In this document: positions 3,001-37,732 of the stretch, piece after piece
Layout of the letters: the number at the start of each line of letters is the position of its first letter
Position numbering within the stretch: the stretch's first letter is position 1
UHGV virus genome: UHGV-0186980
DNA from: a virus
DNA: 44,857 bases
Strand: one strand, 5' to 3'
Program-made: the position numbers and the translations under genes
Notes under the pieces: generated by a model
Told to the model about the DNA's origin: nothing
Seen by the model: the letters and a program-made list of their open reading frames with translations, nothing else
The model's database searches: none

Positions 3001-5510
3001 CGCTGGGCTTCCTGCCAGGCTTCCGTATCCTTAATCGCATCGGTCAGCTTGTCGTAATACTCACCGATATCGTCGCTGGCCATCCCCTGCACCCAGGCGG
3101 TCCACGGGCTTTCATTGCCGATACGATCAACGATCCGCGCGCGGTACCAGAATATCGCCGCAATCTGCAGGCCCATCTGCTGATACGTTTTACCCGGATA
3201 CGCCACATCAGACAGCGCCATCGCCCCGTTGCCGTTGGGATTAGGACTGTACTGCAGCTCGGTTTTCTGCGTATCGCCGCTCCCCTCCGGGAACTCCCAG
3301 TTCAGCTGCACGCCATGCAGCAGGGAAGTGGTGGTCAGCGCCAGCGGTGCCGACGGCAAACCGATTTTTCCGGTCAGCGTTTTCTCTTCTGAGTATGCCC
3401 AGCCGCTGGAGACCTCTGCAGCGTTGATCGCCCGGACACGGGCCAGATAACGACCGGCGTAAATGCCGCTGACCTCGAACGAGGTGGTCGAGCTGCGCGG
3501 CACGTTAATCCAGTTACCGTCATTACGTCGCCACTGCGCTTCATACGAAATCGCATCTTTCACCGCATTCCAGTGCACCTGCATCGTTTCAACGCTGATG
3601 CCCTGATTCACCACAGAATACGAGCTGATGACGATATTTTCCGGCGGTGACTGGTTCCCCGGAGGAATAACGCTTATCGGGCGCTGGTCGATGATCGCGC
3701 CGGTATCGATACGCGGAAATTTATCCGGGTCGTGGGCCACGCCGGTGATTGTATACGTGGCATTGTTGTTGTCCTTTACCCCAATCACGCGGTACTGCTG
3801 TGTATACAGATCGTCGGACTCAATAACCCATACGCACTCTGTTTCCGGCGTCTCACTGTAGGCCGTAGTGACTGTTATCTGCCGTCGACCGTTGACTGAC
3901 TGGATCGTCCGGGCCTGAGATATGCCTGACGGTAGGTTCAGCTGCAGCCGGTCACCGGCTTTTGCATCAGTATCCCGGTCAAGGGTAATCACCCGGCCAT
4001 TAACCGCACTGATACGCCCGCCGTTCACGCGTCCGGCCAGCAGTTCATCAGCCAGGCCAATGATGTAGCCCGGCTGCGGAATTTTGCCATCGAGACCGAC
4101 ATCGATTTCAACCATGCGGTCTTTGTTGTTGGTCAGAATGCCCCACAGCCCTTTCCTGTGGGCTTCGCTCTGCCGGGTACACCCAATGGCCGTCACTTCG
4201 AGCTGGTTAAAGCTGTAGCGGGAAACCAGCTCCGGGACGAACGCCGGTTCCATCGCATCAGCATACGCATTCGCCGGGTCGGACCAGGAGACCAGCGCGT
4301 TGGTGTAGCGGGCCTTGCTTGTGCTGCTCGAATAACGCGGTTTGCCAATAATGTTCGCCCGCGTGTAGTTGAAATCAACATCGCGCGGCATATCCGCCTG
4401 CACAACAATCTGCTCACCGCTCCAGCAGGTCATTCCCCGGAAAATAGCCGCAAAGTCACGCAGCACGGTGTAGGCATCATTGCGTTCCTGCACGTAAACG
4501 TTACAGAGATAGCGAGGCTCCATGCCATCGCCGCCCCTGCCATCGGGGACCATCTGATCGCAATACTGCGCAATCTGGTACAGCGTCCATTTAGAGATAT
4601 TCGCGCTGGTCAGACGGTTGCCGAGGCCAAACCGGTCTGAAACAACGATATCGTAATAAATCCATGCCGGGTTATCCGTCCAGGCCCATTTAAACCCGCC
4701 GGTCCAGGTGCCGGTATACTCGCGGCTCTCCGGGTTGTAGTTATCAGGAACGCGGATCACGCGCCCGCGTGGCTCACAGGAAATTTGCGGGATGGAACCA
4801 TTAAACTGGCTGGAGTCGAACTCGATATAGAGCAGCGCGGTATGCGGATAGCGCAGCTTCGCGTCGATTACTTCTGTGTAGCTCTGTAACGTCATCACAT
4901 CGCCGATTTTGACGCTGTTGGCGTCCGGCGATACTTTCCGCAGGCGGAGCGTCCATGTGCTCCCCGCTTGCGGCAGGTCGATGCGGTGGCTGCGCTCATA
5001 GCCGGAAGTGGTTTTCCCGGTAACCGCCGTTTCCAGCACGGTCTGCCATGCACCGCCATCTGTCTGCAAATCGATGGCGTATTTAACCGTGTTGCCCACC
5101 ACGTCACCATCATCTTCCTGCTTCATCAGGGACGGCCACTTCAGACGGACGCGGACGGCAGATAGCTGAGTATTTGTAAACGTATGGCTCCAGGCGGTTT
5201 CGCTGGATATTTCTGTTCCGACGCTGATTTCATTTTCAGTGCCGGGAATGCCTTGAATATATTTTTGTGCCTGTGTTCCGGGACGAAATTCCCAGGCCAC
5301 GCCGGAAAAGTTCTCTGACCCGTCGGCATTTAATAGCGGGGTACCATCGAGATAAATATCCTTGCCCGTTAATTCACCTGCAAATTCTCCCTCGCCCAGC
5401 GCGATGAGAATTTTGGCTTTTGCTACGGACTGTAAATCATCCGGCTGCTCCGTCGGCGTGCGCTGGCTTGAGCTGCCACCTTTGCGCCCTTTGATTATGT
5501 TATTTGCCAT
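1..5510 (-). CDS. J: Host specificity / central tail fibre protein J-like, with long C-terminal fibre-repeat extension; 3' end truncated by window
   Basis: ATG at 5510-5508, N-terminus MANNIIKGRKGGSSSQRTPTEQ resembles lambda J; same frame checked open at 2040-2099 and at 3-119; absent from ORF track, consistent with an edge-truncated ORF. Antisense ORFs in the track (955..1836+ etc.) are Ser/Val/Ala-rich junk. Confidence 0.75.
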   Translation of the reverse strand, partial: MANNIIKGRKGGSSSQRTPTEQPDDLQSVAKAKILIALGEGEFAGELTGKDIYLDGTPLLNADGSENFSGVAWEFRPGTQAQKYIQGIPGTENEISVGTEISSETAWSHTFTNTQLSAVRVRLKWPSLMKQEDDGDVVGNTVKYAIDLQTDGGAWQTVLETAVTGKTTSGYERSHRIDLPQAGSTWTLRLRKVSPDANSVKIGDVMTLQSYTEVIDAKLRYPHTALLYIEFDSSQFNGSIPQISCEPRGRVIRVPDNYNPESREYTGTWTGGFKWAWTDNPAWIYYDIVVSDRFGLGNRLTSANISKWTLYQIAQYCDQMVPDGRGGDGMEPRYLCNVYVQERNDAYTVLRDFAAIFRGMTCWSGEQIVVQADMPRDVDFNYTRANIIGKPRYSSSTSKARYTNALVSWSDPANAYADAMEPAFVPELVSRYSFNQLEVTAIGCTRQSEAHRKGLWGILTNNKDRMVEIDVGLDGKIPQPGYIIGLADELLAGRVNGGRISAVNGRVITLDRDTDAKAGDRLQLNLPSGISQARTIQSVNGRRQITVTTAYSETPETECVWVIESDDLYTQQYRVIGVKDNNNATYTITGVAHDPDKFPRIDTGAIIDQRPISVIPPGNQSPPENIVISSYSVVNQGISVETMQVHWNAVKDAISYEAQWRRNDGNWINVPRSSTTSFEVSGIYAGRYLARVRAINAAEVSSGWAYSEEKTLTGKIGLPSAPLALTTTSLLHGVQLNWEFPEGSGDTQKTELQYSPNPNGNGAMALSDVAYPGKTYQQMGLQIAAIFWYRARIVDRIGNESPWTAWVQGMASDDIGEYYDKLTDAIKDTEAWQEAQRDIEETHKELTKTADAIREEVAQQVTDINQSIDDSASEIRQQVDGQIEAVNKSITENINSVNQTLSDNITAVNKSITDAVSDINASVDQQIADVNKTLAEGDAALKSQLQTVENSLKQSIAQANTGWDKAVKQETADRIADVNAKAAQAADQLLNEKNERVAAIESTQQIIQNVNDSLATQMAQISAGTGEQFDSQAIWYFDNDREGWTSNGGTPSVVENGWLRPANHATDAYITSPGISISGSAYRFLKLRLKKTGTPAWSGQIRWRYEGQSFNDSRMLTVAEPDYDSSGRAVLSIQDIPWGSDDSKPVVQFRLDLTVDQSDDNFIIIDWIAVGRPTPGASTAALREESTARANADTAEANKRATLATQMRGTSESNNLADLRSGLLFQEMNARITADKAEVTARESLQTQFNENKSSVAEELSSLSTAQSAQASKISGLETSLGKKADATALQSLTQKVEQQGTTLTSQGNSLTSLSNRVGKAESGVAANSNAITGLQSSVSQQDKTLTSQGSAIAKLQNDLTTTNSNVSKKADASAVTALTNRVSATEGNLTTQSGQLTMLKNTLAEGSLISNGGMDVDLSFWENSGTGSAFTYDAGEKALRTTTGSVRVANVTRIPAEAGLTLTVSFEYKTSETMNSVSSDTVGVITDLGNPVAWLSSESPWLSGVTTSWQTKTVELTIPENFTGNYVYLRFAAGGWVPSNSARLYIRKVDVFSSTGVSKKANASAVTDLTSRVDSAEGKLASHSQAITKLQNDLTTTNSNVSKKADQSALTSLTGRVEKTESGLTAANSNITSLNSSISAAKAAGDDYIPNPAFDPSYDRMGYDVVSSGAAGVPGDCPFAYVVRLAGRDHVPKINNIAVTPGDVFEMSALVACGAGQADFNLYIASGTSATEGVKARLSGGNTKTTAAWKRATWRFTVPSDTNFLRPFLQVNQSSPFGTVWYAADWHLRNVTAANRAQKIADATASAVDTLTTKVTQQGDTLSSIGNRTTALENG

Positions 5511-8471: not shown

Positions 8472-11400
8472 TAGCGTTGTCCTCTTACGGCGCTCCAGAT
8501 AGCGCCACCCGGGCGCATATCCTTCGCCTGCAGCTCACGATATTTTTTCTCGACGAACGACCCAATCTGCTGGCCAAACTCTTCAAACCCTGACGTGCTG
8601 TCAGTCGAGGTTTTGTCGCCAGAAATGGTGATCCAGACTTTTGGCCCTTCAACAGACGCTGAGGGCTGGCCGGATGCTGTCGCCCGGATGCCTGAAAACT
8701 CATCCGCGGCACGCGGCGCAGGTATCATCGGAGCCGCCCCCATTCCGGTGATCCCCTCTGCGCTTGTGCTGAAACCTGTTCCGACAAGACTTTGAATCGT
8801 GGTCAGAAGTGACTGTGTCGCCATATCAATCAGCCCCTTAATGACCGACAGGGCCGGGCCGGAGGACTGTTCACCAATGGCACGGACGCCCAGCGAACCA
8901 TCAGTCCCTCGGGTCAGTGGCATAATGGCCTCTGGACCAGCCTCACCAAATACCCCCGCGCCTTTGGCAAAGGCGAAGAGCTGCGGGGTGTCGTGGATCT
9001 GGTTGCTGTAGGCACTTAATGAAGGGGAATCGTAGACGCCACCTTTTGCGTTGAATTCCACCGTGGCTGCAGCGGCTTCATACGAACCGGACGGCGTATT
9101 TCCACCTCCTGCCGCACCTGCACTTCCTCCGATCGCACCGCCAAAAGCAGAACCGACCATGCCAAAAATACTCTGCAGTGCACTGGAAAGCGCGATACGC
9201 GTGGCAATTTGCGCCAAATCTGAAAGGATTGAAATAGTAAAGCTTTTGAAGCTTCCTTTACCGGTTATGGCAAAGGAAGCGAGGGAGCTTGCCATGCTGT
9301 CAAAGGCACTCGTGGTAAAGCTGGCTATCTGGCTGTTTGCATCCCGCGCATTATCTGTCCAGTTCTTCGCCCCACGCCTGAATCCCGCGCTGTAATCCTG
9401 TTCTGCTCTCAGACGATCCTGCACGCTTTGCTCGGTAATCTGCAGTTCCTGCTGCTTTATCCGCTCCAGATCGGCCAGACGGGCCTGATATTCAGCCGAT
9501 GTGGTATCGATAAAATCTTTCTCCAGCGCAATGCGCCGCTGATTAAAGCGGTTAATAATGGCGTTACGGGCTTCTGCGTCGCTAGCTTCCTGTTCGGAAA
9601 GGTTGTACTTCTCCAGATTCAGAGCAGCTTCGCGCTGCATAGCCTGAGCCTCTTCAGCCCACTTACGGCTTTCAGCCTGATATTTCAGCGAGGTTTTTCG
9701 CAAGACGGCTTCTTTTTCAAGCTGAATATTCGACTGCAGTTGCGCCCGGATCTGGTCCTGCATATTCACCAGGCTTTGCTGGCTTTTGGTCAGGTTTTCA
9801 CCCTTCAGCCCGGAGAGTTTTTCATTAAAGGCGACCAGCTGTCGTTCGGATTCTGTCAACGTATCAGTGGTCTGCGCCTGTTCTTTCAGTACTGCGTTTC
9901 GTTGCAGTGCCTGCTCCAGCATTCGCTGCCCTTCAGTCTCGCCGCTACCAGACTTTTTGGGTTTATCTTTCTTCGTGGCCTTGTCGTATTCATCATTAAT
10001 CCCTTTCAGGATCCGCTGATACTCCTGCGAGCCGGATGCGTAAATGCTGTTATTGAGTTTTTTTATCGCTGCAGCACGCTTTTCTGCTGCGGTACTCCCG
10101 GCATCCATGTAGCTCTTCAGCCCGGCAGCGTTTTTTATACGGTCACTTTGTGCCTCGGCGTATCCTGCTTTGCTTGTAGCGATAAAGCGGCGTGTCTTTT
10201 CGTCAAACTCTTTCTGGTCTTTAGTGAGGAGATCGGTCAAAGCAATGGTTTCACCAAGACTTCCGAGTATCCCCCACTCACGCCCAAGATTTTTTAACTT
10301 ATCAAGATAAGTTTCCGCGTGTGCCGCCAGCTCTTTCAGTTTAAAGCTTTCCGCATCAAGAGCTTGTTCCATGATGAGCTGCGTTGCTTTCGCTGTTTCC
10401 CCTTTATTCGTCAGGCTGATAACCTGTGCGACAATGGATTCATTCAGCGAAATGCCCTGGGCTGTCAGCTGGGCCATCGCATTAAGCGGGTCTCCCTTCA
10501 GGGCAGATATTTTGCTGACCAGATCCTCAGCGTTCCCACCGGCTTCAGCGTAGGCTGTCGCAATAAATGCAACTTCATGCAGCAATGCACCACTGAAACC
10601 ACCGTTTGCCGCAGCGACCACAGCAGAAAGGGAATGTTCTGTACCACCAAGCTGAGCATTGAGGCTTCTCAGTTCAGTGAGAGATAACTGAGCTGACGTT
10701 CTCGTTCCGAGTAGCGCCGCATTCAGTTTTTTTGTTTGCTCCTCGGATTTTTTAAACTCGCTGTAAATCATTGAGCCACCGGCAGCAAGCACCGACAGGC
10801 CAATACCAACAGGTCCACCCAGCAGACTCATCGCCGAACTAAGCGCCCGGCTGCTGGTCGCTGCAATACGCTGGGTCACAGTAAGCTGGGTATTTGCCGC
10901 AGCAGCAGCTTCTGTTGCTGCTGTTAGTGCCGCCTTTCCACCTGTTTCGGCGGCATCAGCGGTCACAACAACCGCTTTGGCGGCTTTTAATTTTTCAAGC
11001 CCGCTGGCCTCAAGACGGTTCGCTTCAATGATCGCCCGCTCATTCTTCAGGTGTTCATCCTGATAGCTGACATTCAGCCCGTACAGCTTATTAACTTCGG
11101 TTTGTTTCGCGTAATACTCGTCCAGCGCAATCGCCTGCTCACGCTGGGCCTGCGCTGCCGCTATCGTCTTTTCAGCGATAGCAGCTTTATTCAGCGCAGA
11201 CTGCCTTTCGGCCTGTGCCGCCGCAATTTGTGCCTTTGCCGCCGACTCCAGTTCGGCAGCTGCCTGACGGGCTGCATCCTGCTGTGTCTTCCAGCCTCCT
11301 GCCGAACTGTCAAGTCGCCCCTTTAAGGTATGAACGGCGGGGATAAGTGCATTAATTATGCTGCTGCTGGCGACATTACTCCCGGCTGCAACTTCATGAA

Positions 11401-18795: not shown

Positions 18796-20510
18796 GCTAC
18801 GTCTTCCTCATCATAGATAGATTTGATGACTGCGCTGTTCAACATGGCGCGCCCTATCCCCATCATTAAACCAACCGCACCATCAATCTTGTTTTGTTTC
18901 CCCTCCTTTGTCGGACGGACAATATCGTCGCTGCCCGGCAAATACCGACCTACAACGTTCTGGATGCACCAGTTCATGATGGGATTTCCGTCATGATGGA
19001 ATCGCCCCGACGCCAGTGCAGCTTCAATCTCTCTCATGGGGTCGCTCATATGGGTGAAGTTCTGTCTGATTTCGACGGGTTCCAGTCCCTCTTCCTCAAG
19101 CAGATGGCGCAAGGAAGTGGCACCATAAGGATCGATAGGACACTGGGCGATTTTCACGTTCTGACGTAACTGCAGGATGGATTCGAAAATCAGCCGATAA
19201 TCTACTTCTGCGCCCTCAGTTGGAATTAAAACGCCCTGTCCCACAAAGGACTGATAACGTTCAGAGGTATGCTTAAGCTTCGGGTCGACAGAATAGATGG
19301 TGTCTTCAGGCACCCAGAACATAGGGCCTACGCAGTAGAAATGGGTAATACCTTCTATATCGCGACGAAAAACAGGAATAACGGCGTTAAGATCGACCTT
19401 TGACGCTAGATCTATTCCCAGCCAGCATTCCTCATCGGCAAAATCAGACAATTTCAGACTCTTGTCAGCAGCAGCCATCCATTTCTGTAAATCGTAAAAG
19501 ACTGTTTTTGCGCTAACCCAACGATTAAAATGCTTGGTCAGGATCTTGTTGGTCTGACTGGGGTTCGATATCGCCAGTAACTGTTTTGCGCGAAGAAAGT
19601 GCTCTTTTACCGATATCCCATAATTGGGATTGGCTTTAATGAGCGCTTCCGGCTGAGTCCAGTCATCATCATCATCCAGACCATAGATGATGCCGAAAAT
19701 GCCCTCATTCTCTTCCCCATTGCGGGTTTTGCGCAGGATCTCCACCACCTGTTCCCGCTTCTCATAGCACGGCGATGTAATGTCATAACCGGCTGTCGTG
19801 ATGATGAGCGTAATGGGTTGCTCGCGAGCCCCCATCCCTGTCGTCATCGTGGTATACAGGGCATCGGTAATATGTTCGTGGTATTCGTCGATAATGGCGC
19901 ATGACGGCGAATCACCGTCACCGGGATCGCCAATCACGGGTGCAAATATGGAGCCATCCGGGCGAGTCATTTTTTTTGCCCAGGGCTTTATAGAAAATTT
20001 CTGCCGCAATGCGGGCAGCTTTTTCACCATCAACAACGCCGGAGCAAACACTTTCCAGGCCTGCTTTTCGGTCGTGGCGCCGCAGTACACTTCCGCACCA
20101 TGTTCACCGTCAGCGCAGAACATATAATTGCCAACGGCAGCGGCAATTGCTGATTTGCCGTTCTTTCTAGGAACTTCGATATAGATCTCAGTGAACCGCC
20201 GCAGGCCACTTTTTTTATTTACCCAGCCAAACGGAACACCCAGGGCAAACTTTTGCCAGGGTTCAAATTCTATCCTGAGTTTTCGGCGGGCCCATTCCCC
20301 TGCGGTATGTGGCATTTTTTGTGCAAAACGAAGAAATCGCTCTGCCTTATTTTTATCGAACCGGTAAGGCCAGTTCGGATCCTTCGCGCGTTCCAGGTCA
20401 TCAAGATGTCGCTTGCAGGCAAGAATAGTTAACTGACATGCCAGAATCTTCCCGCCAACGATATCCCGTGCATACTGGTTCGCCGCATTGACGTTCGGAT
20501 ATGTGGCCAT
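18789..20510 (-). CDS. Terminase large subunit
   Basis: 573 aa; ATPase N-terminal region and nuclease C-terminal region; upstream of portal. Confidence 0.85.
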   Translation of the reverse strand: MATYPNVNAANQYARDIVGGKILACQLTILACKRHLDDLERAKDPNWPYRFDKNKAERFLRFAQKMPHTAGEWARRKLRIEFEPWQKFALGVPFGWVNKKSGLRRFTEIYIEVPRKNGKSAIAAAVGNYMFCADGEHGAEVYCGATTEKQAWKVFAPALLMVKKLPALRQKFSIKPWAKKMTRPDGSIFAPVIGDPGDGDSPSCAIIDEYHEHITDALYTTMTTGMGAREQPITLIITTAGYDITSPCYEKREQVVEILRKTRNGEENEGIFGIIYGLDDDDDWTQPEALIKANPNYGISVKEHFLRAKQLLAISNPSQTNKILTKHFNRWVSAKTVFYDLQKWMAAADKSLKLSDFADEECWLGIDLASKVDLNAVIPVFRRDIEGITHFYCVGPMFWVPEDTIYSVDPKLKHTSERYQSFVGQGVLIPTEGAEVDYRLIFESILQLRQNVKIAQCPIDPYGATSLRHLLEEEGLEPVEIRQNFTHMSDPMREIEAALASGRFHHDGNPIMNWCIQNVVGRYLPGSDDIVRPTKEGKQNKIDGAVGLMMGIGRAMLNSAVIKSIYDEEDVAC

Positions 20511-20944
20511 CAGTCAAACTCATCAAATTCATTCCCGTCATCGTCCTGATCATTTTTGCCGCTGGTCATTCGGATACGGCTGAGCGGATCTAACCCCAGT
20601 AGCGAGCCCAGACGGGCTATCTGGGAAACAGAGTCATTTCTGACGTTTACGGCAGGATGTTTTTTTAACCCTCCCATTTCGCTTTCAGTTGTCAGCCCGT
20701 TAGCCAGTAATTTTTCGGCTTCGAGCATCAGATGGAAGGCGTTGCAGTAAGCCAGAAGTAAAGGGGCATCTTCAAGCTCAAAAACGCCTCTTTCGATCAG
20801 GATTTTACTTTGAGTCTTCCATATTCTTATAGCCGCCTCCCCCATCAACTCAGCCGGGGGCGCGATTCGGGTCAGTTTACTTTTTTGCCCGGTGGGTAAA
20901 ACGGGTTTTCTTCCCCCTCCAGACGATCTAATACCAGCAGCCAT
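20510..20944 (-). CDS. Terminase small subunit (P27-like)
   Basis: 144 aa, acidic C-terminus, overlaps TerL start (ATGA). Confidence 0.6.
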   Translation of the reverse strand: MAAGIRSSGGGRKPVLPTGQKSKLTRIAPPAELMGEAAIRIWKTQSKILIERGVFELEDAPLLLAYCNAFHLMLEAEKLLANGLTTESEMGGLKKHPAVNVRNDSVSQIARLGSLLGLDPLSRIRMTSGKNDQDDDGNEFDEFD

Positions 20945-21755: not shown

Positions 21756-22052
21756 TTAATGGCTCCGGTTACGGTTGCGATTTTTATTGCGGTTACGCTG
21801 ATGGCGCGGTGCGGTTTCGGCTGGCAGGTGCTCGCCTTCGAACGCTTGCGCTGGCTCTTGCGGTTGCGGTTGCGGTTGAGCGGGAACCAGTCCCTCGGGA
21901 ATTTCACCACCTACCTCAAACTTGAGATGCGGTTCTTTCCCCAAGAAATGGCTGAAGTTCAGGCCCGATAGTCCTGCATTGAGCATCGAGATCCCCTCGA
22001 CATCAACGGTAACGAGTTGGCCATCAACGTATTCAATTTTTAAATTCTTCAT
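21756..22052 (-). CDS. Hypothetical protein with Pro/Gln-rich and basic NRNKNRNRNR tail (start refined to ATG 22052)
   Basis: MKNLKIEYVDGQLVTV...; ATGA overlap with HNH stop. Confidence 0.45.
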   Translation of the reverse strand: MKNLKIEYVDGQLVTVDVEGISMLNAGLSGLNFSHFLGKEPHLKFEVGGEIPEGLVPAQPQPQPQEPAQAFEGEHLPAETAPRHQRNRNKNRNRNRSH

Positions 22053-22411
22053 CGTGTTCTCTCTGTTGCGGTTTTCGTTCTGTGGCACGGCCAGCACAAC
22101 GATTCCAGATTGTAATTGTCATCAGTACCGCCGTGGGCTTTAGGAATGATGTGGTCGACGCTGGTAGCTTTTGTGGCGATACCGTGGCGTCGGCAGTTCT
22201 GGCAAAGGTATTTGTCGCGCACGAGTATCTGGGCACGAATGATTTCCCAGGAACGACCGTATCCGCGTTGCTGTCGGGTTTTTCCGGTCTGATAGTTACG
22301 CCAGCCATCGCCAGTGTGTTGCTGCCGATGGATCTCGCAGTATCTAGTGGCGTCATTCGTCACTGCCGCGCATCCTCTGTGCCGGCAAGGTCGTTTAGCT
22401 CGTGGTGGCAT
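22049..22411 (-). CDS. HNH endonuclease (terminase-associated)
   Basis: VDHIIPKAHGG...NLESLCWPCH HNH motif; start refined to MPPRAKRP (track start is upstream junk). Confidence 0.8.
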   Translation of the reverse strand: MPPRAKRPCRHRGCAAVTNDATRYCEIHRQQHTGDGWRNYQTGKTRQQRGYGRSWEIIRAQILVRDKYLCQNCRRHGIATKATSVDHIIPKAHGGTDDNYNLESLCWPCHRTKTATERTR

Positions 22412-22556
22412 ACACATCCTCAAGCATGAATTTGGAGAGAGTAAAAGCGGCACTGTCGATGGGGAACTCTGAAACTGGCAACGATGCGAATGACAAATCG
22501 TCATACGAAATCACCACCAGCTTCCCTCCTACGTATTCAATTTTTAAGCTCTTCAT
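22395..22556 (-). pseudogene. Short paralogous copy (53 codons) of the N-terminus of the 21756..22052 gene, upstream of HNH
   Basis: MKSLKIEYVGGKLVVI... vs MKNLKIEYVDGQLVTV...; 24-nt near-identical DNA at 22533-22556 and 22029-22052. Confidence 0.35.
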
Positions 22557-22730
22557 CATGTGGCATCACGAATACAAAAAGCCCCGCAGATGCGAGGCTA
22601 CTGGTTATACATCAGGGTGTTATTGATAGAGAGCAGCGTGTAAGGTTATCGCTCAGCCGCCTGTGGTGGGACACAGGTAGATATTGTAATTGCAGAGGGA
22701 TAGCTGATTAGCTCTGCTTAAGGAATAGAA

Positions 22731-22931
22731 ATGATTAAAAAGAATATGCACCTTCAAATGGAATCAAATGCCCAAACAATCGACGAATTGAACAAAGAAA
22801 TTGGGCAACTGAAATGTGTCGTTGGTTTCTTAATGACTCAATTACCACCGCAATCTAGGCAGGCTGTCATCAATAATCTTGAGGAGTTTGGACTTGATGA
22901 GTCAGTTAAGGAATTTACTCAGTTCCTTTGA
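22731..22931 (+). CDS. Hypothetical 66-aa protein
   Basis: ATG with AAGGAA RBS; AT-rich accessory region. Confidence 0.4.
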   Translation: MIKKNMHLQMESNAQTIDELNKEIGQLKCVVGFLMTQLPPQSRQAVINNLEEFGLDESVKEFTQFL

Positions 22932-23315
22932 ACAAGGCTTGACCTAATAAATTAATGTACCAGCCTTGAGAATTTTTGGGTTGTGTCCCAGGCGAAGTAG
23001 TGGACTCGCTTCCTTCGCCTGAAACATTTTTTGGGTTTGAAGTTTTGACGTTCAACGTTTTCAAGTTATTCCTCCTTATTACGATCCCCGCTAAGTGATA
23101 CAGACAGATTTATCCCTTGGTAGGGATAGATGTTCTCACCGATTCGTAAATCCGCTCACAGGTCATTCCTGCTTTGTAGCGTTCGTCTGCAATTGCAGCA
23201 TACGCCACGGGGATTAACTACTTATGTCTAACAATCGACAGTCTCATTGTTACAGCCATTAAAAAAACCACCCATGTGGAGTGCCCCCCGAAATGTGGCC
23301 TATCTGATCGCTATG

Positions 23316-23445
23316 AAAAAGGCCGCAAAAGAGATGCGGCCTTTTGTCATGCACAGTTATCGATTAAATAAACTCTCAGGAGCCATCCGGGAGAGCATCA
23401 CTTAAACGGGTAACTGACCTCCGACAGACTGGTGTTGGGACGGAG
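23316..23445. repeat. Imperfect direct repeat copy 1 (~130 bp) containing terminator-like hairpin GGCCGCAAAAGAGATGCGGCC and CTCTCAGGAGCCATCCGGGAGAG
   Basis: Blocks shared with 24610-24740: AAAAAGGCCGCAAAA..ATGCG.CCTTT, CTCTCAGGAGCCA.CCGGGAGAG, TAACTGACC. Confidence 0.55.
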
Positions 23446-23790
23446 GTGCAATGAGAGTAGTGTGTTTCATTTTTTTTCATACCAGCAAACACAAAATAAT
23501 GGCAGTTCTTCCTGTTAATCGATAACTGCTATTCAATTAGTCTGGCCAGACGGATGATTATCCTGCCAGGAGTTATCACACTCACACAATGAAAATCTTT
23601 AAAAAAAATCCTTAGCCGGTTCACTCGCCTTCGAACAGGTGCAATGACCTTGCTCTGACGAAATTAGCTTTAATCGTTCGTTGCCATCTTCCGTACAAAC
23701 AAAATAGTCACAAAAAAATAAAGGTTAAAAAGTGAGCTATTTACTGTCCTGTGGTGTATGGTTAGCAATCACTCACGAGGATAAAAACCA

Positions 23791-23961
23791 TGGCGATGCT
23801 CAAAGACAAGATACGTACACTCAGACCTGTAAAAAGCACCTGTCCTCACTGCTCTCGCCAGTCAACACATAGCCTGTCGAGAATAAAAAACGATATAACA
23901 TTGATCTGCCCATACTGCGGAAATATTTTCCTCCCCTCAGAAAGTAAACCTGTTAAGTAAC
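23791..23961 (+). CDS. Small zinc-ribbon protein (CX2C-x18-CX2C), 56 aa
   Basis: MAMLKDKIRTLRPVKSTCPHCSRQ...LICPYCGNIF; GAGGA RBS 8 nt upstream. Confidence 0.45.
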
Positions 23962-24203
23962 TGATCGAATACTTTACTGAAGCTGAAGTCCACTCTCAGG
24001 CTTCAGTAAACGAAACGACTTAGCAATCAGCGTCAGGACGCGCTACAGCCTGTATCCAGCAGACCGCAAAAATAACGGCTCACTCCTTTCAGGCGATTCA
24101 TTCGCTCAAAATCACCAGGAGTTAACATGCTTCTTCTCCTGCTTCTGATAATCAAAAAACCGCAAATGCGAGGTTTATTTGGTAAATATTGGTTTACCTG
24201 AAC

Positions 24204-24473
24204 CTAGGAATAATAGGCTGCGAAATGCTCCTCAACCTGCGCCCTTGTGTCTGCGCTCTCGTTTAATGTCAATGAGTCATAACCCTTAATGTGAAAAACA
24301 GGTTCATATGCATAAACAGTAATCAATGCGTAAATTGCATTGTCAGTACCAGAAAAAATCTCATATTTCACACGCGACAGGCGCTTATGTTCATTAACTA
24401 ACATGTATGTTTCGATAAGCTTATGAGTAACCACGTTTTTTCCTTCATGACAAAAAAATCCCCTTTTAACCAT
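24204..24473 (-). CDS. Hypothetical 89-aa protein
   Basis: ORF in AT-rich cassette; no motif recognised. Confidence 0.4.
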   Translation of the reverse strand: MVKRGFFCHEGKNVVTHKLIETYMLVNEHKRLSRVKYEIFSGTDNAIYALITVYAYEPVFHIKGYDSLTLNESADTRAQVEEHFAAYYS

Positions 24474-24609
24474 ACGCGTTAGGAGCTAAGAATTGAAATT
24501 ATTAGCATTATCGAAGCCACTCGGCAGAATGGTCTCTGTGATGCATTTGCATTTGCATTTATCTTTGCCATGCGTACAAGCAAAATGGTGGCCTTACGGA
24601 TGCCTGTTA

Positions 24610-24740
24610 CGCACAATAAAAAAGGCCGCAAAAAAATGCGACCTTTGGTTAGTACCAGTTAGAAAACTAAAATCTCTCAGGAGCCACCCGGGAGAGGCTT
24701 TTCTGTTTTTTAACTGACCACTGCCGTTTCGGTGTTGACT
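24610..24740. repeat. Imperfect direct repeat copy 2 (~130 bp)
   Basis: See copy 1 at 23316-23445. Confidence 0.55.
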
Positions 24741-24918
24741 GGCAGTGATAACGTGATGATAGCTTCATTTAAGTTATCGATATCATTTAAATATCTAAAG
24801 AACTATTTAAACCAATAATTCTCAACTCGCCGGAACATTCAACCATAGAAACAGGTTTCTATGCTGGTCTTTTGATGGTAAGCATCAATTCACCACAACC
24901 AGCTTAGTTGCTAATAAA

Positions 24919-25131
24919 TTATTCGGGGGTACCTTCAACGTTGAACCATAGATCTAAATGTTTAATGTAGCGCTGGATGGACACACAAATAACCACTCCA
25001 TCTTTAAGGTTAACAGACTTAATAACACATCCTTTCGGTGCAAAATACTCCCCATCATAATGGGGGCGAATGGAATGCTCGTCTCCGTAACGATAACCGT
25101 GCGGAAGTTGAGGGAGTGAATTTCTTGTCAT
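24919..25131 (-). CDS. Hypothetical 70-aa protein downstream of spanin genes
   Basis: ORF directly downstream of lysis cassette; no motif recognised. Confidence 0.4.
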   Translation of the reverse strand: MTRNSLPQLPHGYRYGDEHSIRPHYDGEYFAPKGCVIKSVNLKDGVVICVSIQRYIKHLDLWFNVEGTPE

Positions 25132-25298
25132 GGGCAGCTTCTTAGATAAAAGGAATTTGAAAATCCATAGTGCATTAGCAACCTTGACTTAGATACCAAC
25201 TTTTCATTGTTTACTGCTCTAATATCTCGTTTTCAGATTTTTTGTTCATACGATGATTTAAATATCAATACCTTAAGCGTGCGACATTTATATCTGAT

Positions 25299-25529
25299 TT
25301 ATCTTGCTCCCTTCTCTGTAAGCTGCGGGCAGTTGGCCTGCACGGATTTGTTGTACGCCAAGATGTCGCGCTTCGTCTGCTTATCCAGCACGTCAATATC
25401 GCGGTCAGTGAGATAGATAATTTTCGCCCACAGGCACCCTGTATCAACGACCACCGGGGCGGGTGAATTGCTCGCGCAGCTCACGATCAACATCGTCATC
25501 AGGCATATGGCTAACAGTCTGCTGTACAT
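25299..25529 (-). CDS. o-spanin (Rz1-like outer-membrane lipoprotein), overlapping the 3' end of the i-spanin gene
   Basis: MYSRLLAICLMTMLIVSCAS lipobox; alternate frame overlapping Rz-like gene. Confidence 0.6.
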   Translation of the reverse strand: MYSRLLAICLMTMLIVSCASNSPAPVVVDTGCLWAKIIYLTDRDIDVLDKQTKRDILAYNKSVQANCPQLTEKGAR

Positions 25530-25722
25530 CACTGGCCTCCCTGGTGGCTTCCTCTTTCCGTTCTGCCGCAGCGACTCTGGCGGCGGCATCCTCTTCTGTA
25601 CGTTTCTTCTCAGATTCCGCTACGGCTTTTTCACGACCGCTCATTCTGCCCAAACCAAATACACCCATGAGCAGAAGAACTGCCGCAGTGAGAAATGCCA
25701 GAATGGCTTTAATTTGCGTCAT
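25444..25722 (-). CDS. i-spanin (Rz-like)
   Basis: N-terminal TM helix then charged coiled coil; directly downstream of endolysin. Confidence 0.65.
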   Translation of the reverse strand: MTQIKAILAFLTAAVLLLMGVFGLGRMSGREKAVAESEKKRTEEDAAARVAAAERKEEATREASDVQQTVSHMPDDDVDRELREQFTRPGGR

Positions 25723-26261
25723 AGCTTCACTCGCTCTTTCACCCAGCCATAAACGAACGACTCATTAGCCGAGCGCTGTTCAGCCAGTTCAAGATACCTT
25801 TGGCCCTGGCTGCAATTGAGAGCGCGCAGCAGCACTTCTTCACCTTCCTTACCCCGGGTATTCAGATAGGATTTCAAAGCATTGATGCTACGGGGTCCAA
25901 TCTGCCCGTCAGCAATAAGATCTGGATAAAGTTTCTGTTGATTGTTGAAAACGTTCAGCCAGCGCTGGAACCATTTCACCTGAACAGATGGCCCCATATT
26001 TACGCCTGTATCGCACAACTCTGCCGCAATTGATGGAGAAACTGTCGCAACCAGGTCAAAGCGCGGCCCATACCAGTAATCGGCTGAAAGGATATCCAGA
26101 GCCTGCTGACGAGTCAGATCACGCATATCGCCTGAATAACCATGGGCACGGGCAACGGCCTGAGTAATCCCCCAGTTAGTTGGACCACCCTTGTCGTTTG
26201 GATTGTTAACATAGCCACCCTCTTTACCGAGGATGCTGTTGAAAATATCTTCTTTAGTCAT
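25719..26261 (-). CDS. Endolysin (GH108-type lysozyme with peptidoglycan-binding domain)
   Basis: N-terminus MTKEDIFNSILGKEGGYVNNPNDKGGPTNWGIT typical of GH108 family as remembered. Confidence 0.75.
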   Translation of the reverse strand: MTKEDIFNSILGKEGGYVNNPNDKGGPTNWGITQAVARAHGYSGDMRDLTRQQALDILSADYWYGPRFDLVATVSPSIAAELCDTGVNMGPSVQVKWFQRWLNVFNNQQKLYPDLIADGQIGPRSINALKSYLNTRGKEGEEVLLRALNCSQGQRYLELAEQRSANESFVYGWVKERVKL

Positions 26262-26539
26262 TAATCCCTCAGTACATCAATCAGGCGCGCCACATTCCCT
26301 CTAAACCAGAGAACCGCAGCGCAGATAAGTATGTTCCCCAGCACCACCAGCCAGTTCGCTGACTCGTAAAGGCCGAACAGGAAACGAAATGGAATGCTGG
26401 CATACACCAGCACCATGAGATAAGCGATGATCGAAATTCCCGGGCGATGCCGCGCGCCATCACGCCGATAGAACATCAGGATCAGCACAATAACCGCACA
26501 AATCACAGCATTCACCAGAGCCGCCGGATTATTTACCAC
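26261..26539 (-). CDS. Holin/antiholin-like membrane protein
   Basis: 92 aa with 2-3 hydrophobic helices, immediately upstream of endolysin. Confidence 0.55.
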   Translation of the reverse strand: MVNNPAALVNAVICAVIVLILMFYRRDGARHRPGISIIAYLMVLVYASIPFRFLFGLYESANWLVVLGNILICAAVLWFRGNVARLIDVLRD

Positions 26540-26918
26540 TGGAGCCTCCTCCCCGTAGCCGGGTCAGCATACTGAACAAGCTATTCAGGTCCTGGCTATT
26601 TAGAAAAGTCAGCACCTTAATGATCAACGCAGAAATAATGACCGCACCCAGCGCATCAAGCGGGCGTTCTCTGTAACCGGTCCACACCGCTAACTTTGCC
26701 CCAAGCAAACCAGCGCCAAGTACGCCAACAATAAATGACGTAACGAAGTATGCTGCCAGACGCTTGCGGGTAATATCGGCCGCAGTTGCAACGTAAAACA
26801 CGGCACCGGCAAAAGCACCGAACACAACGCCATAATCAATTCCGGTTACCATGCCGAAAATACTGGCGCCCATGAGCCCGGCGGTCGCTATGGCAGTACC
26901 AGAAACAGGTTCGGACAT
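26529..26918 (-). CDS. Putative holin (multi-TM membrane protein)
   Basis: 129 aa, Gly/Ala-rich TM helices, first gene of lysis cassette. Confidence 0.55.
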   Translation of the reverse strand: MSEPVSGTAIATAGLMGASIFGMVTGIDYGVVFGAFAGAVFYVATAADITRKRLAAYFVTSFIVGVLGAGLLGAKLAVWTGYRERPLDALGAVIISALIIKVLTFLNSQDLNSLFSMLTRLRGGGSSGK

Positions 26919-37036: not shown

Positions 37037-37732
37037 ATGAACATCGGAAAGCGAATCAGAGAACTACGCCTTGCAAAGGGCTTAAAAATAAACGACCTGG
37101 CTGATGCTTTGGGCATTGATGGCGCCAATATTTCTCGCATGGAAACAGGTAAACAGAAATCATTTACCGAACAATCCCTTAATCTTTATGCAAAGGCATT
37201 AGGCGTAGAAGTTGCTGAGCTCTTTACACCTCCCCAAAATGAAATTACTGTATATAATAACAGTATAAAACATCCAGTTCATGGAGAGGGTAGCTCGGTG
37301 TTTAGAGTGGAAATGCTTGATGTCAGTGCGAGCGCTGGTGGTGGATTTATTCAGGGCAGTGATGTTATTGATGTCATAAGGTCTATTGAATACAACAACG
37401 ACCAAGCCATGACTTTATTCGGTGGCAGAACACCAGACTCAGTGAAGGTCATTAACGTTCGGGGCGACAGCATGGCTGACACTATTCAGCCTGGAGATTT
37501 GATTTTCGTCGATGTTTCAGTCAATAGCTTTGATGGCGATGGCATCTACGTCTTTGGTTTCGATGGCAAAATATATGTTAAGCGCCTGCAAATGATACCA
37601 GATAAAATGCTCGTGATTTCTGATAATCCAAAATACAGAGAATGGGAAATCGATCGGGCTAATGAATACCGCTTTTGCGTTTATGGCAAAGTAATGATCA
37701 GCCAGTCACAAGCCTTCAAGCGCCACGGCTAA
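37037..37732 (+). CDS. cI: CI repressor (HTH + S24 LexA-like autopeptidase domain)
   Basis: N-terminal HTH; C-terminal GDSM Ser and VKR Lys motifs. Confidence 0.85.
   Translation: MNIGKRIRELRLAKGLKINDLADALGIDGANISRMETGKQKSFTEQSLNLYAKALGVEVAELFTPPQNEITVYNNSIKHPVHGEGSSVFRVEMLDVSASAGGGFIQGSDVIDVIRSIEYNNDQAMTLFGGRTPDSVKVINVRGDSMADTIQPGDLIFVDVSVNSFDGDGIYVFGFDGKIYVKRLQMIPDKMLVISDNPKYREWEIDRANEYRFCVYGKVMISQSQAFKRHG

Follow-up and report, generated by a model that had tools for sequence, protein, structure and literature searches.

Lambda and other lambdoid prophages encode small RNAs (sRNAs) of the Hfq type, some of them within the late operon (10.1101/2024.10.31.621285; 10.64898/2026.05.13.724894; PMC12803456; PMC7547250). 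Here we describe an RNA element that occurs twice, as an R copy and an L copy, between the lysis and packaging genes of the viral genome UHGV-0186980, a lambdoid prophage analysed as one stretch of 44,857 nt (44.8 kb, referred to below as the window). It is a previously uncatalogued element of ~135 nt, predicted to fold and to end in a terminator, for which we found neither an Rfam family nor a description. Published work on prophage sRNAs, namely the Klebsiella RIL-seq (RNA interaction by ligation and sequencing) study, the Pas sRNAs, PreS and LPR2 of lambda, and svsR, was considered as a source of known counterparts and concerns different loci throughout. With the lambdoid sRNAs (DicF; PasA-D/STnc100; StxS; PreS, LPR2 and 6S of lambda; svsR) the element has in common that it is short, non-coding accessory cargo of a prophage, yet it has no sequence or Rfam match to them. 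Those sRNAs sit between Q and the holin gene, in the immunity region or at the 3' end of cI, whereas the element lies after the lysis genes and before the small terminase gene (terS). It is also found mainly in Klebsiella and is nearly absent from E. coli, where a distant-mode search found it in 1 of 5426 genomes and megablast gave no match.

Several other phage structures invite comparison. The sib/tI region of lambda and the RNase III hairpins of T7 are phage-operon structures whose fate differs between terminated and antiterminated transcripts. Like them, the element is a hairpin and terminator within an operon and contains a long interrupted duplex; unlike them, it carries additional conserved loop motifs and is dispensable. 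The putL and putR sites of phage HK022 follow the early promoters and suppress downstream terminators. Compared by description, put resembles the element in having two diverged copies per genome, compensatory changes in its stems and two stem-loops in the sense of the operon, but the element stands ~10 nt before a strong predicted terminator of its own, in the late region of a Q-encoding phage, and about half of the relatives lack it. A put-type antitermination RNA was rejected on location, since in this phage, which has a Q gene, the element lies beyond the lysis genes. Finally, the morons and mosaic module boundaries of lambdoid phages are said to have been described by Juhala et al. in 2000 and by Hendrix et al. 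The window shares with these an AT-rich accessory segment between lysis and head genes, terminators belonging to that segment and short homologies at its junctions; it differs in that the boundary sequence is a covarying structured RNA, which goes beyond a terminator or neutral homology.

An earlier note, made from the letters of this DNA, had pointed to a 1.3-kb AT-rich cassette bounded by two imperfect direct repeats. Both repeats were recovered with covariance model R1 within a few bases of where the note had placed them, and both lie on the minus strand, which is the late-operon strand of the phage. With filters off, R1 detected no third copy anywhere in the window, including the vicinity of Q and pR'; a weak match of 13.8 bits was seen at 22575-22680. 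The R and L copies are direct repeats of 131-132 nt that have diverged by ~25%. The shared blocks were also as the note had described them and align as three conserved blocks: GGCCGCAAAA..TGCGRCC, CTCTCAGGAGCCAYCCGGGAGAG, and TAACTGACC with GGTGTTG. The 23-nt core CTCTCAGGAGCCAYCCGGGAGAG has two exact occurrences in the window, compared with 0.00 expected from 100 shuffles. Each copy folds on its own into three parts on the minus strand, hairpin A, hairpin B and terminator hairpin C, which are located as follows.

24619-24749, minus strand: R copy of the RNA element (R1 match of 138 bits, E~1e-31)
24749-24717, minus strand: hairpin A of the R copy, stem AUCACUGCC/GGCAGUGGU, loop with UCAACACC
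24716-24656, minus strand: hairpin B of the R copy, outer stem CAGUUA/UAACUG, apex core at 24696-24674
24646-24621, minus strand: terminator hairpin C of the R copy, U-tract to ~24616, present in the terminator scan
23316-23447, minus strand: L copy of the RNA element (R1 match of 125 bits, E~2e-28)
23447-23417, minus strand: hairpin A of the L copy, stem ACCUCCG/CGGAGGU, loop with CCAACACC
23416-23354, minus strand: hairpin B of the L copy, apex core at 23395-23373
~23345-23321, minus strand: terminator hairpin C of the L copy, U-tract at 23320-23316
23269-23283, minus strand: second intrinsic terminator directly after the L copy, from the terminator scan, motif ..CAAAGGCCACC..GGTGGCTTTTTTAATGG

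Hairpin A consists of a 7-9-bp stem and a ~15-nt loop that carries the conserved CCAACACC. Hairpin B spans ~60 nt and has an interrupted stem of 23-27 bp, with the outer stem CAGUUA/UAACUG at its base and CUCUC..GGR-UGGC-UCC..GAGAG at its apex. It is followed by an A-rich spacer of ~10 nt, the GC-rich terminator hairpin C and a U-tract, which has 5-6 U in the two window copies. Against shuffled sequences the fold has z-scores of -4.2 to -5.8 overall (-5.1 for the R copy and -5.8 for the L copy). Each copy ends in a strong predicted intrinsic (Rho-independent) terminator with a GC-rich stem of 10-11 bp and 5-8 U; this hairpin is near-invariant in 46 variants, and of the two strands the minus strand offers it the better U-tract. 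In the R copy a 10-bp stem is followed by UUUUUUAUU, and in the L copy an 11-bp stem (-20.1 kcal/mol including a flanking extension) is followed by UUUUU. The L stem can be extended to 23349/23313 (~15 bp) only if transcription reads through.

The relatives carry at least six sequence types of the element (R, 4, 3, 3b, L and the S forms, which are like that of Salmonella phage SEN34), and these are ~25% divergent with the fold kept. The hairpin A stem, for example, is AUCACUGCC/GGCAGUGGU in type R, GUCUCUGCC/GGCAGAGGU in type 3 and ACCUCCG/CGGAGGU in type L, and the middle stem of hairpin B is AAAAG..AAAA/UUUU..GUUUU in type R versus GCCGUAUAGA/UCUUUAUACGC in type 3. Folded one by one, nearly all variants form hairpins A, B and C, the exceptions being the diverged 3b copies and some chimeras. 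Covariation was measured on A4, a MAFFT alignment of 36 trimmed elements that replaced an alignment (A3) in which the L-type hairpin A was out of register and was misdrawn by RNAalifold. In A4, 91.6% of cells are paired, compared with 37-47% when the partners are slid, and there are 81 double-change cells, compared with 4-21 when slid; none of 500 shuffles reached the observed percentage paired, number of double-change cells or covariation score. A strand test gave 167 G·U cells against 37 A·C cells, with pairing of 91.6% on the late strand and 83.5% on the opposite strand, and in type 3b the outer stem of hairpin B (UUAGUUAG/CUGGUUGG) is paired solely through G·U. The strand-specific pairing, the excess of G·U and a stem that one type holds by G·U only point to selection of an RNA read in the sense of the late operon and not of a DNA palindrome. 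The element is a structured non-coding RNA whose pairs are kept by compensatory and wobble changes on one strand, and ~100 nt of each repeat form a separately conserved, covarying structure that the terminator does not need. Of the three interpretations offered in the earlier note, a duplicated terminator module comes closest, since both copies end in a strong predicted terminator, but it leaves those ~100 nt of covarying RNA out of account.

The element is also more conserved than its surroundings. Over 66 loci with the upstream gene in common, the median identity of the R element to the window copy is 95.4%, compared with 83.1% for the upstream coding sequence, 86.4% for the intergenic stretch and 82.6% for the downstream stretch. 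The loop of hairpin A exposes (G/C)CCAAYACC, of which CCAAYACC is conserved though it was never part of any search pattern; the GGUCAGUUA junction and UAACUG are likewise conserved, and they, like the A-rich spacer, lay outside every search pattern. A protein-coding reading of the repeat was rejected, as the R, 4, L and L2 variants do not share one reading frame and a start codon is missing from type 3; the "hypothetical protein BN426_1862" annotated over the element in Klebsiella phages was rejected with it. Some ~140 nt upstream of the element are homologous among types 3, 3b, L and S, and RNAalifold found no consensus structure in the ~140 nt upstream of the L and type-3 copies. In a full-length alignment of types 3, L and S we also observed a possible 6-bp long-range helix, (G/U)RUGAA with UUCAU(C/A), that encloses the whole element and its U-tract. 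At the one position that covaries, type 3 has G-C and type L has U-A. In the window it would join ~23478-23483 with ~23311-23316 and could form only in read-through transcripts.

The element was found in more than 150 viral contigs overall. Its exact core is present in 117 viral contigs of IMG/VR, a relaxed pattern (the 3' side of the apex plus the terminator) adds at least 41 new loci, and BLAST and annotation place it in five Klebsiella phages and in SEN34. Among one-genome-per-species representatives, K. oxytoca was the only match. At Rfam 15 gathering thresholds there were zero matches in the whole window, and below threshold the best matches within 22800-25400 were TarA (20 bits, where 80 are needed), Thr_leader and suhB, with E of at least 1.3. 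A full-text literature search with the core sequence returned only unrelated eukaryotic primer matches. As a separate observation, a second copy of the element in locus L024 (~11141-11275) is interrupted in its 5' half by sequence that ends in GGCTTTGTTGAATAAATCG and has the look of an IS903-type inverted repeat.

Wherever annotation or sequence allowed a check, the element stands after the holin, endolysin and Rz genes and before the small terminase, and every full-strength match of the covariance model is on the late-operon strand. In the window the late operon runs on the minus strand in the order Q, holins/endolysin/spanins, an AT-rich stretch, HNH endonuclease, small terminase and head genes; the landmarks of the prophage are these.

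37037-37732, plus strand: CI
29351-30199, minus strand: Q antiterminator
25299-26918, minus strand: two holins, GH108 endolysin and Rz-type spanins
22049-22504, minus strand: HNH endonuclease
20510-20944, minus strand: small terminase, after which come the head genes

The packaging module of the window is HNH plus Terminase_4. A packaging-site (cos/pac) role was dropped, as the element is followed by packaging modules of two unrelated kinds, the one just named and, elsewhere, one with a 331-amino-acid (aa) small terminase. The AT-rich island extends over ~22600-25300 with 37-45% GC, compared with 50-56% on both flanks, and fills the whole gap between the Rz and HNH genes. The earlier note was therefore right that the cassette is AT-rich, but the island is about twice as wide as the 1.3-kb segment between the repeats.

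Other features of this region were seen in passing. Within the lysis genes, the two holin genes at 26261-26918 (minus strand) are of the Phage_holin_8 and Phage_holin_3_7 families. An open reading frame (ORF) for a HicB-like antitoxin lies on the opposite strand at 27298-27711 (plus), between the Q/methylase genes and the lysis cassette. A 113-aa ORF (PHROG 4567) at 21756-22097 (minus) has low-complexity ends, one N-R-rich (…NENRNRENT…) and one of QP repeats (QPQPQPQEP … NRNKNRNRNRSH). At 22915-23064 (minus) a 49-aa ORF with a TTG start and a perfect AAGGAGG Shine-Dalgarno sequence converges on a 66-aa ORF (PHROG 6806, 22731-22931, plus) and overlaps its 3' end; the same pair is found 3' of type-4 elements in relatives like L003.

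A sample of 80 loci was chosen by a 331-aa small terminase at least 94% identical, with no use made of the element. About 38 of the 80 carry it, ~263 nt upstream of terS. Many of the remaining loci have a plain ..CAAAGGCCACC..GGTGGCTTTTTTAATGG terminator or a different module of hairpin plus terminator at this site, and some have unrelated sequence. The plain terminator (L125, L138, L158 and others) is the motif that follows the L copy in the window at 23283-23269. The element is accessory and dispensable for the phage. That about half of the terS-matched relatives do without it argues against an essential role in cis in the expression of late genes and for cargo with a function of its own. 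Judged from these sequences, termination seems to be the common requirement at the junction, with hairpins A and B as an optional extra. Two copies are present in about one fifth of loci (22 of 100 selected by the core, 15 of 80 selected by terS), usually as an R copy followed 978 nt later by a 3b copy, with DUF2560 and a 63-aa ORF between them. The earlier note had allowed that the repeats might be ordinary terminators present singly in all relatives. This agrees with the many single-copy loci, but not with the fifth that have two or the half of the terS-matched loci that have none. Like morons, the segment has a deviant GC content, predicted terminators of its own, and insertions and deletions among close relatives.

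The genes in and beside the 1.3-kb segment show how it was put together. The internal ORFs that the earlier note had listed were found at the positions it gave, and together with the gene upstream of the R copy they are as follows.

24919-25131, minus strand: 70-aa gene, PHROG 7679 (E = 1.4e-39)
24204-24473, minus strand: 89-aa ORF, PHROG 38275 (E = 7.9e-30, match from residue 15), cargo between the copies
24127-24201, plus strand: poly-Leu ORF of 24 codons, judged spurious
23790-23960, plus strand: YnfU-family zinc ribbon of 56 aa, Pfam PF23499 (E = 5.5e-14)

The 70-aa protein has no Pfam or PDB match and the 89-aa protein no PDB match; the 89-aa ORF probably has its true start at the GTG at 24434. 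Wherever the upstream sequence is present, the gene immediately before an R or type-4 copy is the 70-aa gene (two loci, cut at the contig edge, lie outside this count). In nearly every locus with downstream sequence, a type 3 or 3b copy has the 331-aa terS after it, and between the two is a reverse-strand gene for a small lipoprotein whose 3' end faces the terminator of the element. One such lipoprotein-like ORF (MKRIMLAVFVICGALSLSGC...), at 5175-5336 (minus) in L122 and at equivalent loci, appears to use the terminator of the type-3 element from the other side. L copies have a divergent gene of the ynfU family before them, or other genes; ynfU itself points away from the L copy, accompanies it in relatives and recurs in other contexts. 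A 9-nt piece of the element core, ACTCTCAGG, is found at 23993-24001 (plus) in the 3' region of ynfU, where it would be complementary to the apex of the element RNA; ~0.3 matches of this type are expected in the window by chance.

The window departs from the usual pairing of R with 3b and combines an R copy with its 70-aa gene, the 89-aa ORF, and ynfU with its L copy, and relatives hold parts of this combination. Loci L003, L026, L040, L073 and L044 are colinear with the window over 25248-24618 and then 23174-22020, with one element and no cassette. Loci L107, L119 and L020 match ~24130-23110 (ynfU and the L copy), with colinear limits at ~24130/24049 and 23110/23295; missing from them are the 70-aa gene, the R copy and the 89-aa ORF. 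The series is completed by chimeric elements: in L004 and L091 the 5' half of an R element is joined to the 3' half of a type-3 element, which brings the 70-aa gene and terS directly together, and R/3b chimeras are present in seven more loci. The crossovers fall in conserved motifs, and in predicted folds canonical pairing within hairpin A or B is lost, at least for the R/3 chimeras. Such chimeras are the products expected of homologous recombination between direct copies with loss of the cargo, and so mark deletions between copies. The segment has no terminal inverted repeats and no recombinase, and all copies belong to one class of genomic position. The 1.3-kb segment is a recombinational mosaic and not a discrete mobile unit, because the two copies have different companions, the 70-aa gene going with R and ynfU with L.

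As to function, the reading that we favour, with confidence a little short of even, is that the element is an accessory gene of the sRNA type whose terminator also insulates its neighbours, an action in trans being our own deduction from its features. Transcription of the module would end at its own terminator and yield a stable RNA of ~135-150 nt, or possibly of up to ~280 nt for the L and type-3 forms, which, in the manner of sRNAs from other prophages, would act in trans as a regulatory sRNA through the exposed loop of hairpin A and/or the CUCCU-containing apex of hairpin B. In the lysogen, the terminator of the module would insulate the neighbouring accessory genes and the packaging operon, and in relatives it would also face the convergent lipoprotein gene; during lytic growth, polymerase modified by Q would read through. 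Homologous recombination between copies joins or deletes the genes between them, and on this reading the cassette is mosaic cargo between two such modules. Features shared with sRNAs of the Hfq type are the terminator hairpin, whose U-tail has 5-8 nt, and an accessible conserved seed, namely the unpaired CCAAYACC loop; an A-rich spacer is also present.

A number of points weigh against an sRNA gene. A sigma-70 scan found no promoter upstream of either copy. A conserved -10-like TAYYMT is present in every type 7-8 nt before hairpin A, with no -35 and with the last T lost in the commonest variant, and an extended -10 resembling TGTGATAAT is present ~135 nt upstream in types 3, 3b, L and S, again with no -35, and reads GATAAC in the L copy of the window. 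A search for targets of the A loop and B apex, made among phage mRNAs only, gave no convincing site at a start codon or ribosome-binding site. The uniform orientation of the copies fits a role in cis in the late transcript equally well. Two points concern the way in which the evidence was gathered. Alignment A6, with 46 distinct sequences including S forms, also supports the fold (91.4% of cells paired compared with 38-48% slid; 15 double-change pairs compared with 4-7 slid, a number reached by 0 of 500 shuffles), but it was fitted to the model, and its pair counts lean towards the structure. The 3' side of the apex, UGGCUCCUGAGAG, shows no variation in the recovered copies, an invariance that is partly an ascertainment effect, as this motif was a search criterion after the first scan and loci were collected by matching the apex; where copies were reached in another way (3b, S forms, R variants), the 5' side of the apex does differ among them, often through C-to-U changes in which a wobble pair is retained. 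Independently of these points, a motif GTGSCTKYGATAATG containing a GATAAT -10-like hexamer was noticed at ~23572-23580 (minus) and ~24500 (minus) in the window and in upstream regions of L047, L006 and L177. It is found ahead of DUF2560, ahead of the 89-aa ORF and ~135 nt before elements of types 3, 3b and L, and may be a shared promoter of accessory genes.

The main rival, which we consider a serious possibility though not a probable one, is a cis element of the late transcript. Under Q-dependent read-through, RNase III would cut hairpin B or the extended terminator stem, or the structure would block an exonuclease, and the lysis, accessory-gene and packaging mRNAs would be separated and differentially stabilised, much as in sib/tI retroregulation of lambda or at the RNase III sites of T7, with mere termination in the lysogen. 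Every copy has the sense of the late operon and stands at a module junction, hairpin B, a duplex with internal loops, has a length that suits RNase III, and no clear promoter was found. The extension of the L terminator stem to ~15 bp upon read-through would also suit this explanation, but it is absent in the R and type-3 forms, and the possible 6-bp enclosing helix (G-C in type 3, U-A in type L), likewise in its favour, depends on a single covarying position. Against it, near-identical terS modules have a plain terminator in place of the element, which is dispensable, and an RNase III site would leave the conserved loop sequence of hairpin A and the apex unexplained.

An improbable explanation is that the repeats are terminators plus conserved linker DNA only, spread by recombination as boundary homology, with an RNA that has no function beyond termination. 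It is consistent with the chimeras, which fall exactly at junctions (the R/3 loci L004 and L091 and the seven R/3b loci), with the existence of relatives with one, two and no copies, and with use of the terminator from both sides in relatives. Yet stems A and B stay paired through compensatory and G·U changes despite ~25% divergence, which is unexpected of neutral DNA, the element is more conserved than adjacent coding sequence, and the chimeras break the fold and are rare.

We regard as very unlikely a toxin-antitoxin or regulator cassette, in which the poly-Leu peptide or the 89-aa protein would be a toxin and the repeats its regulatory RNA. A toxin/regulator cassette was among the suggestions of the earlier note, and small convergent ORFs in an AT-rich accessory region, and a hydrophobic peptide ORF with AGGAG nearby, speak for it. 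The peptide ORF does lie at 24127-24201 as the note said, but it spans a mosaic junction, as homology to L107 and L119 starts from 24130 and homology to L012 and L022 ends at 24218; 24131-24217 has no counterpart in any of the twelve relatives with listed blastn matches, in contrast to what a type I toxin would require. It also overlaps a weak terminator-like hairpin with a U-tract on the minus strand after the 89-aa ORF. Because it straddles the junction of the ynfU and 89-aa blocks, has no counterpart in these relatives and overlaps the minus-strand hairpin, we judged it to be spurious. For the 89-aa protein and the YnfU-family protein there is no match to any family of toxins or antitoxins, and both occur elsewhere without the repeats (homologues of the 89-aa ORF are in other contexts in L012 and L022), and in other phages the cargo between the copies is wholly different, such as DUF2560 and the 63-aa ORF.

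Least credible of all is a small mobile element (a miniature inverted-repeat transposable element, an insertion sequence or an integron-like cassette) with the repeats as its ends: direct repeats do bound a segment missing from close relatives, and relatives without window ~24617..23175 bear out that much of the earlier note's "small inserted element", but the repeats are direct, ~25% diverged and 131-132 nt long with internal hairpins, which sets them apart from terminal inverted repeats. Neither a recombinase nor a transposase is present, the relatives that are colinear with one copy and its flank differ from those that are colinear with the other, and the sole true insertion-sequence signature is the IS903-like end that interrupts the L024 copy.

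Extended further, the sRNA reading leads to a speculation that we hold to be rather doubtful: the element may found a new family of prophage regulatory RNAs, with two paralogues per genome in some phages, in which an anti-Shine-Dalgarno-like apex (UGGCUCCUGAGAG) and the CCAACACC loop would reprogram genes of the host or of competing phages in Klebsiella lysogens, while the modules would also serve as portable homology for swapping or dropping accessory genes. If the element is merely a decorated terminator, the finding is an ordinary one; if it is a true regulator in Klebsiella lysogens, its interest rises. Klebsiella is an important pathogen whose biology is shaped by its temperate phages, and phage regulatory RNAs have been catalogued mostly in E. 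coli and only recently. The element adds an abundant RNA fold, absent from Rfam and with good covariation support, that has a defined place in many Klebsiella prophages. It also illustrates clearly how cassettes of accessory genes arise, are exchanged and are lost in mosaic phage genomes through functional non-coding modules that are repeated.

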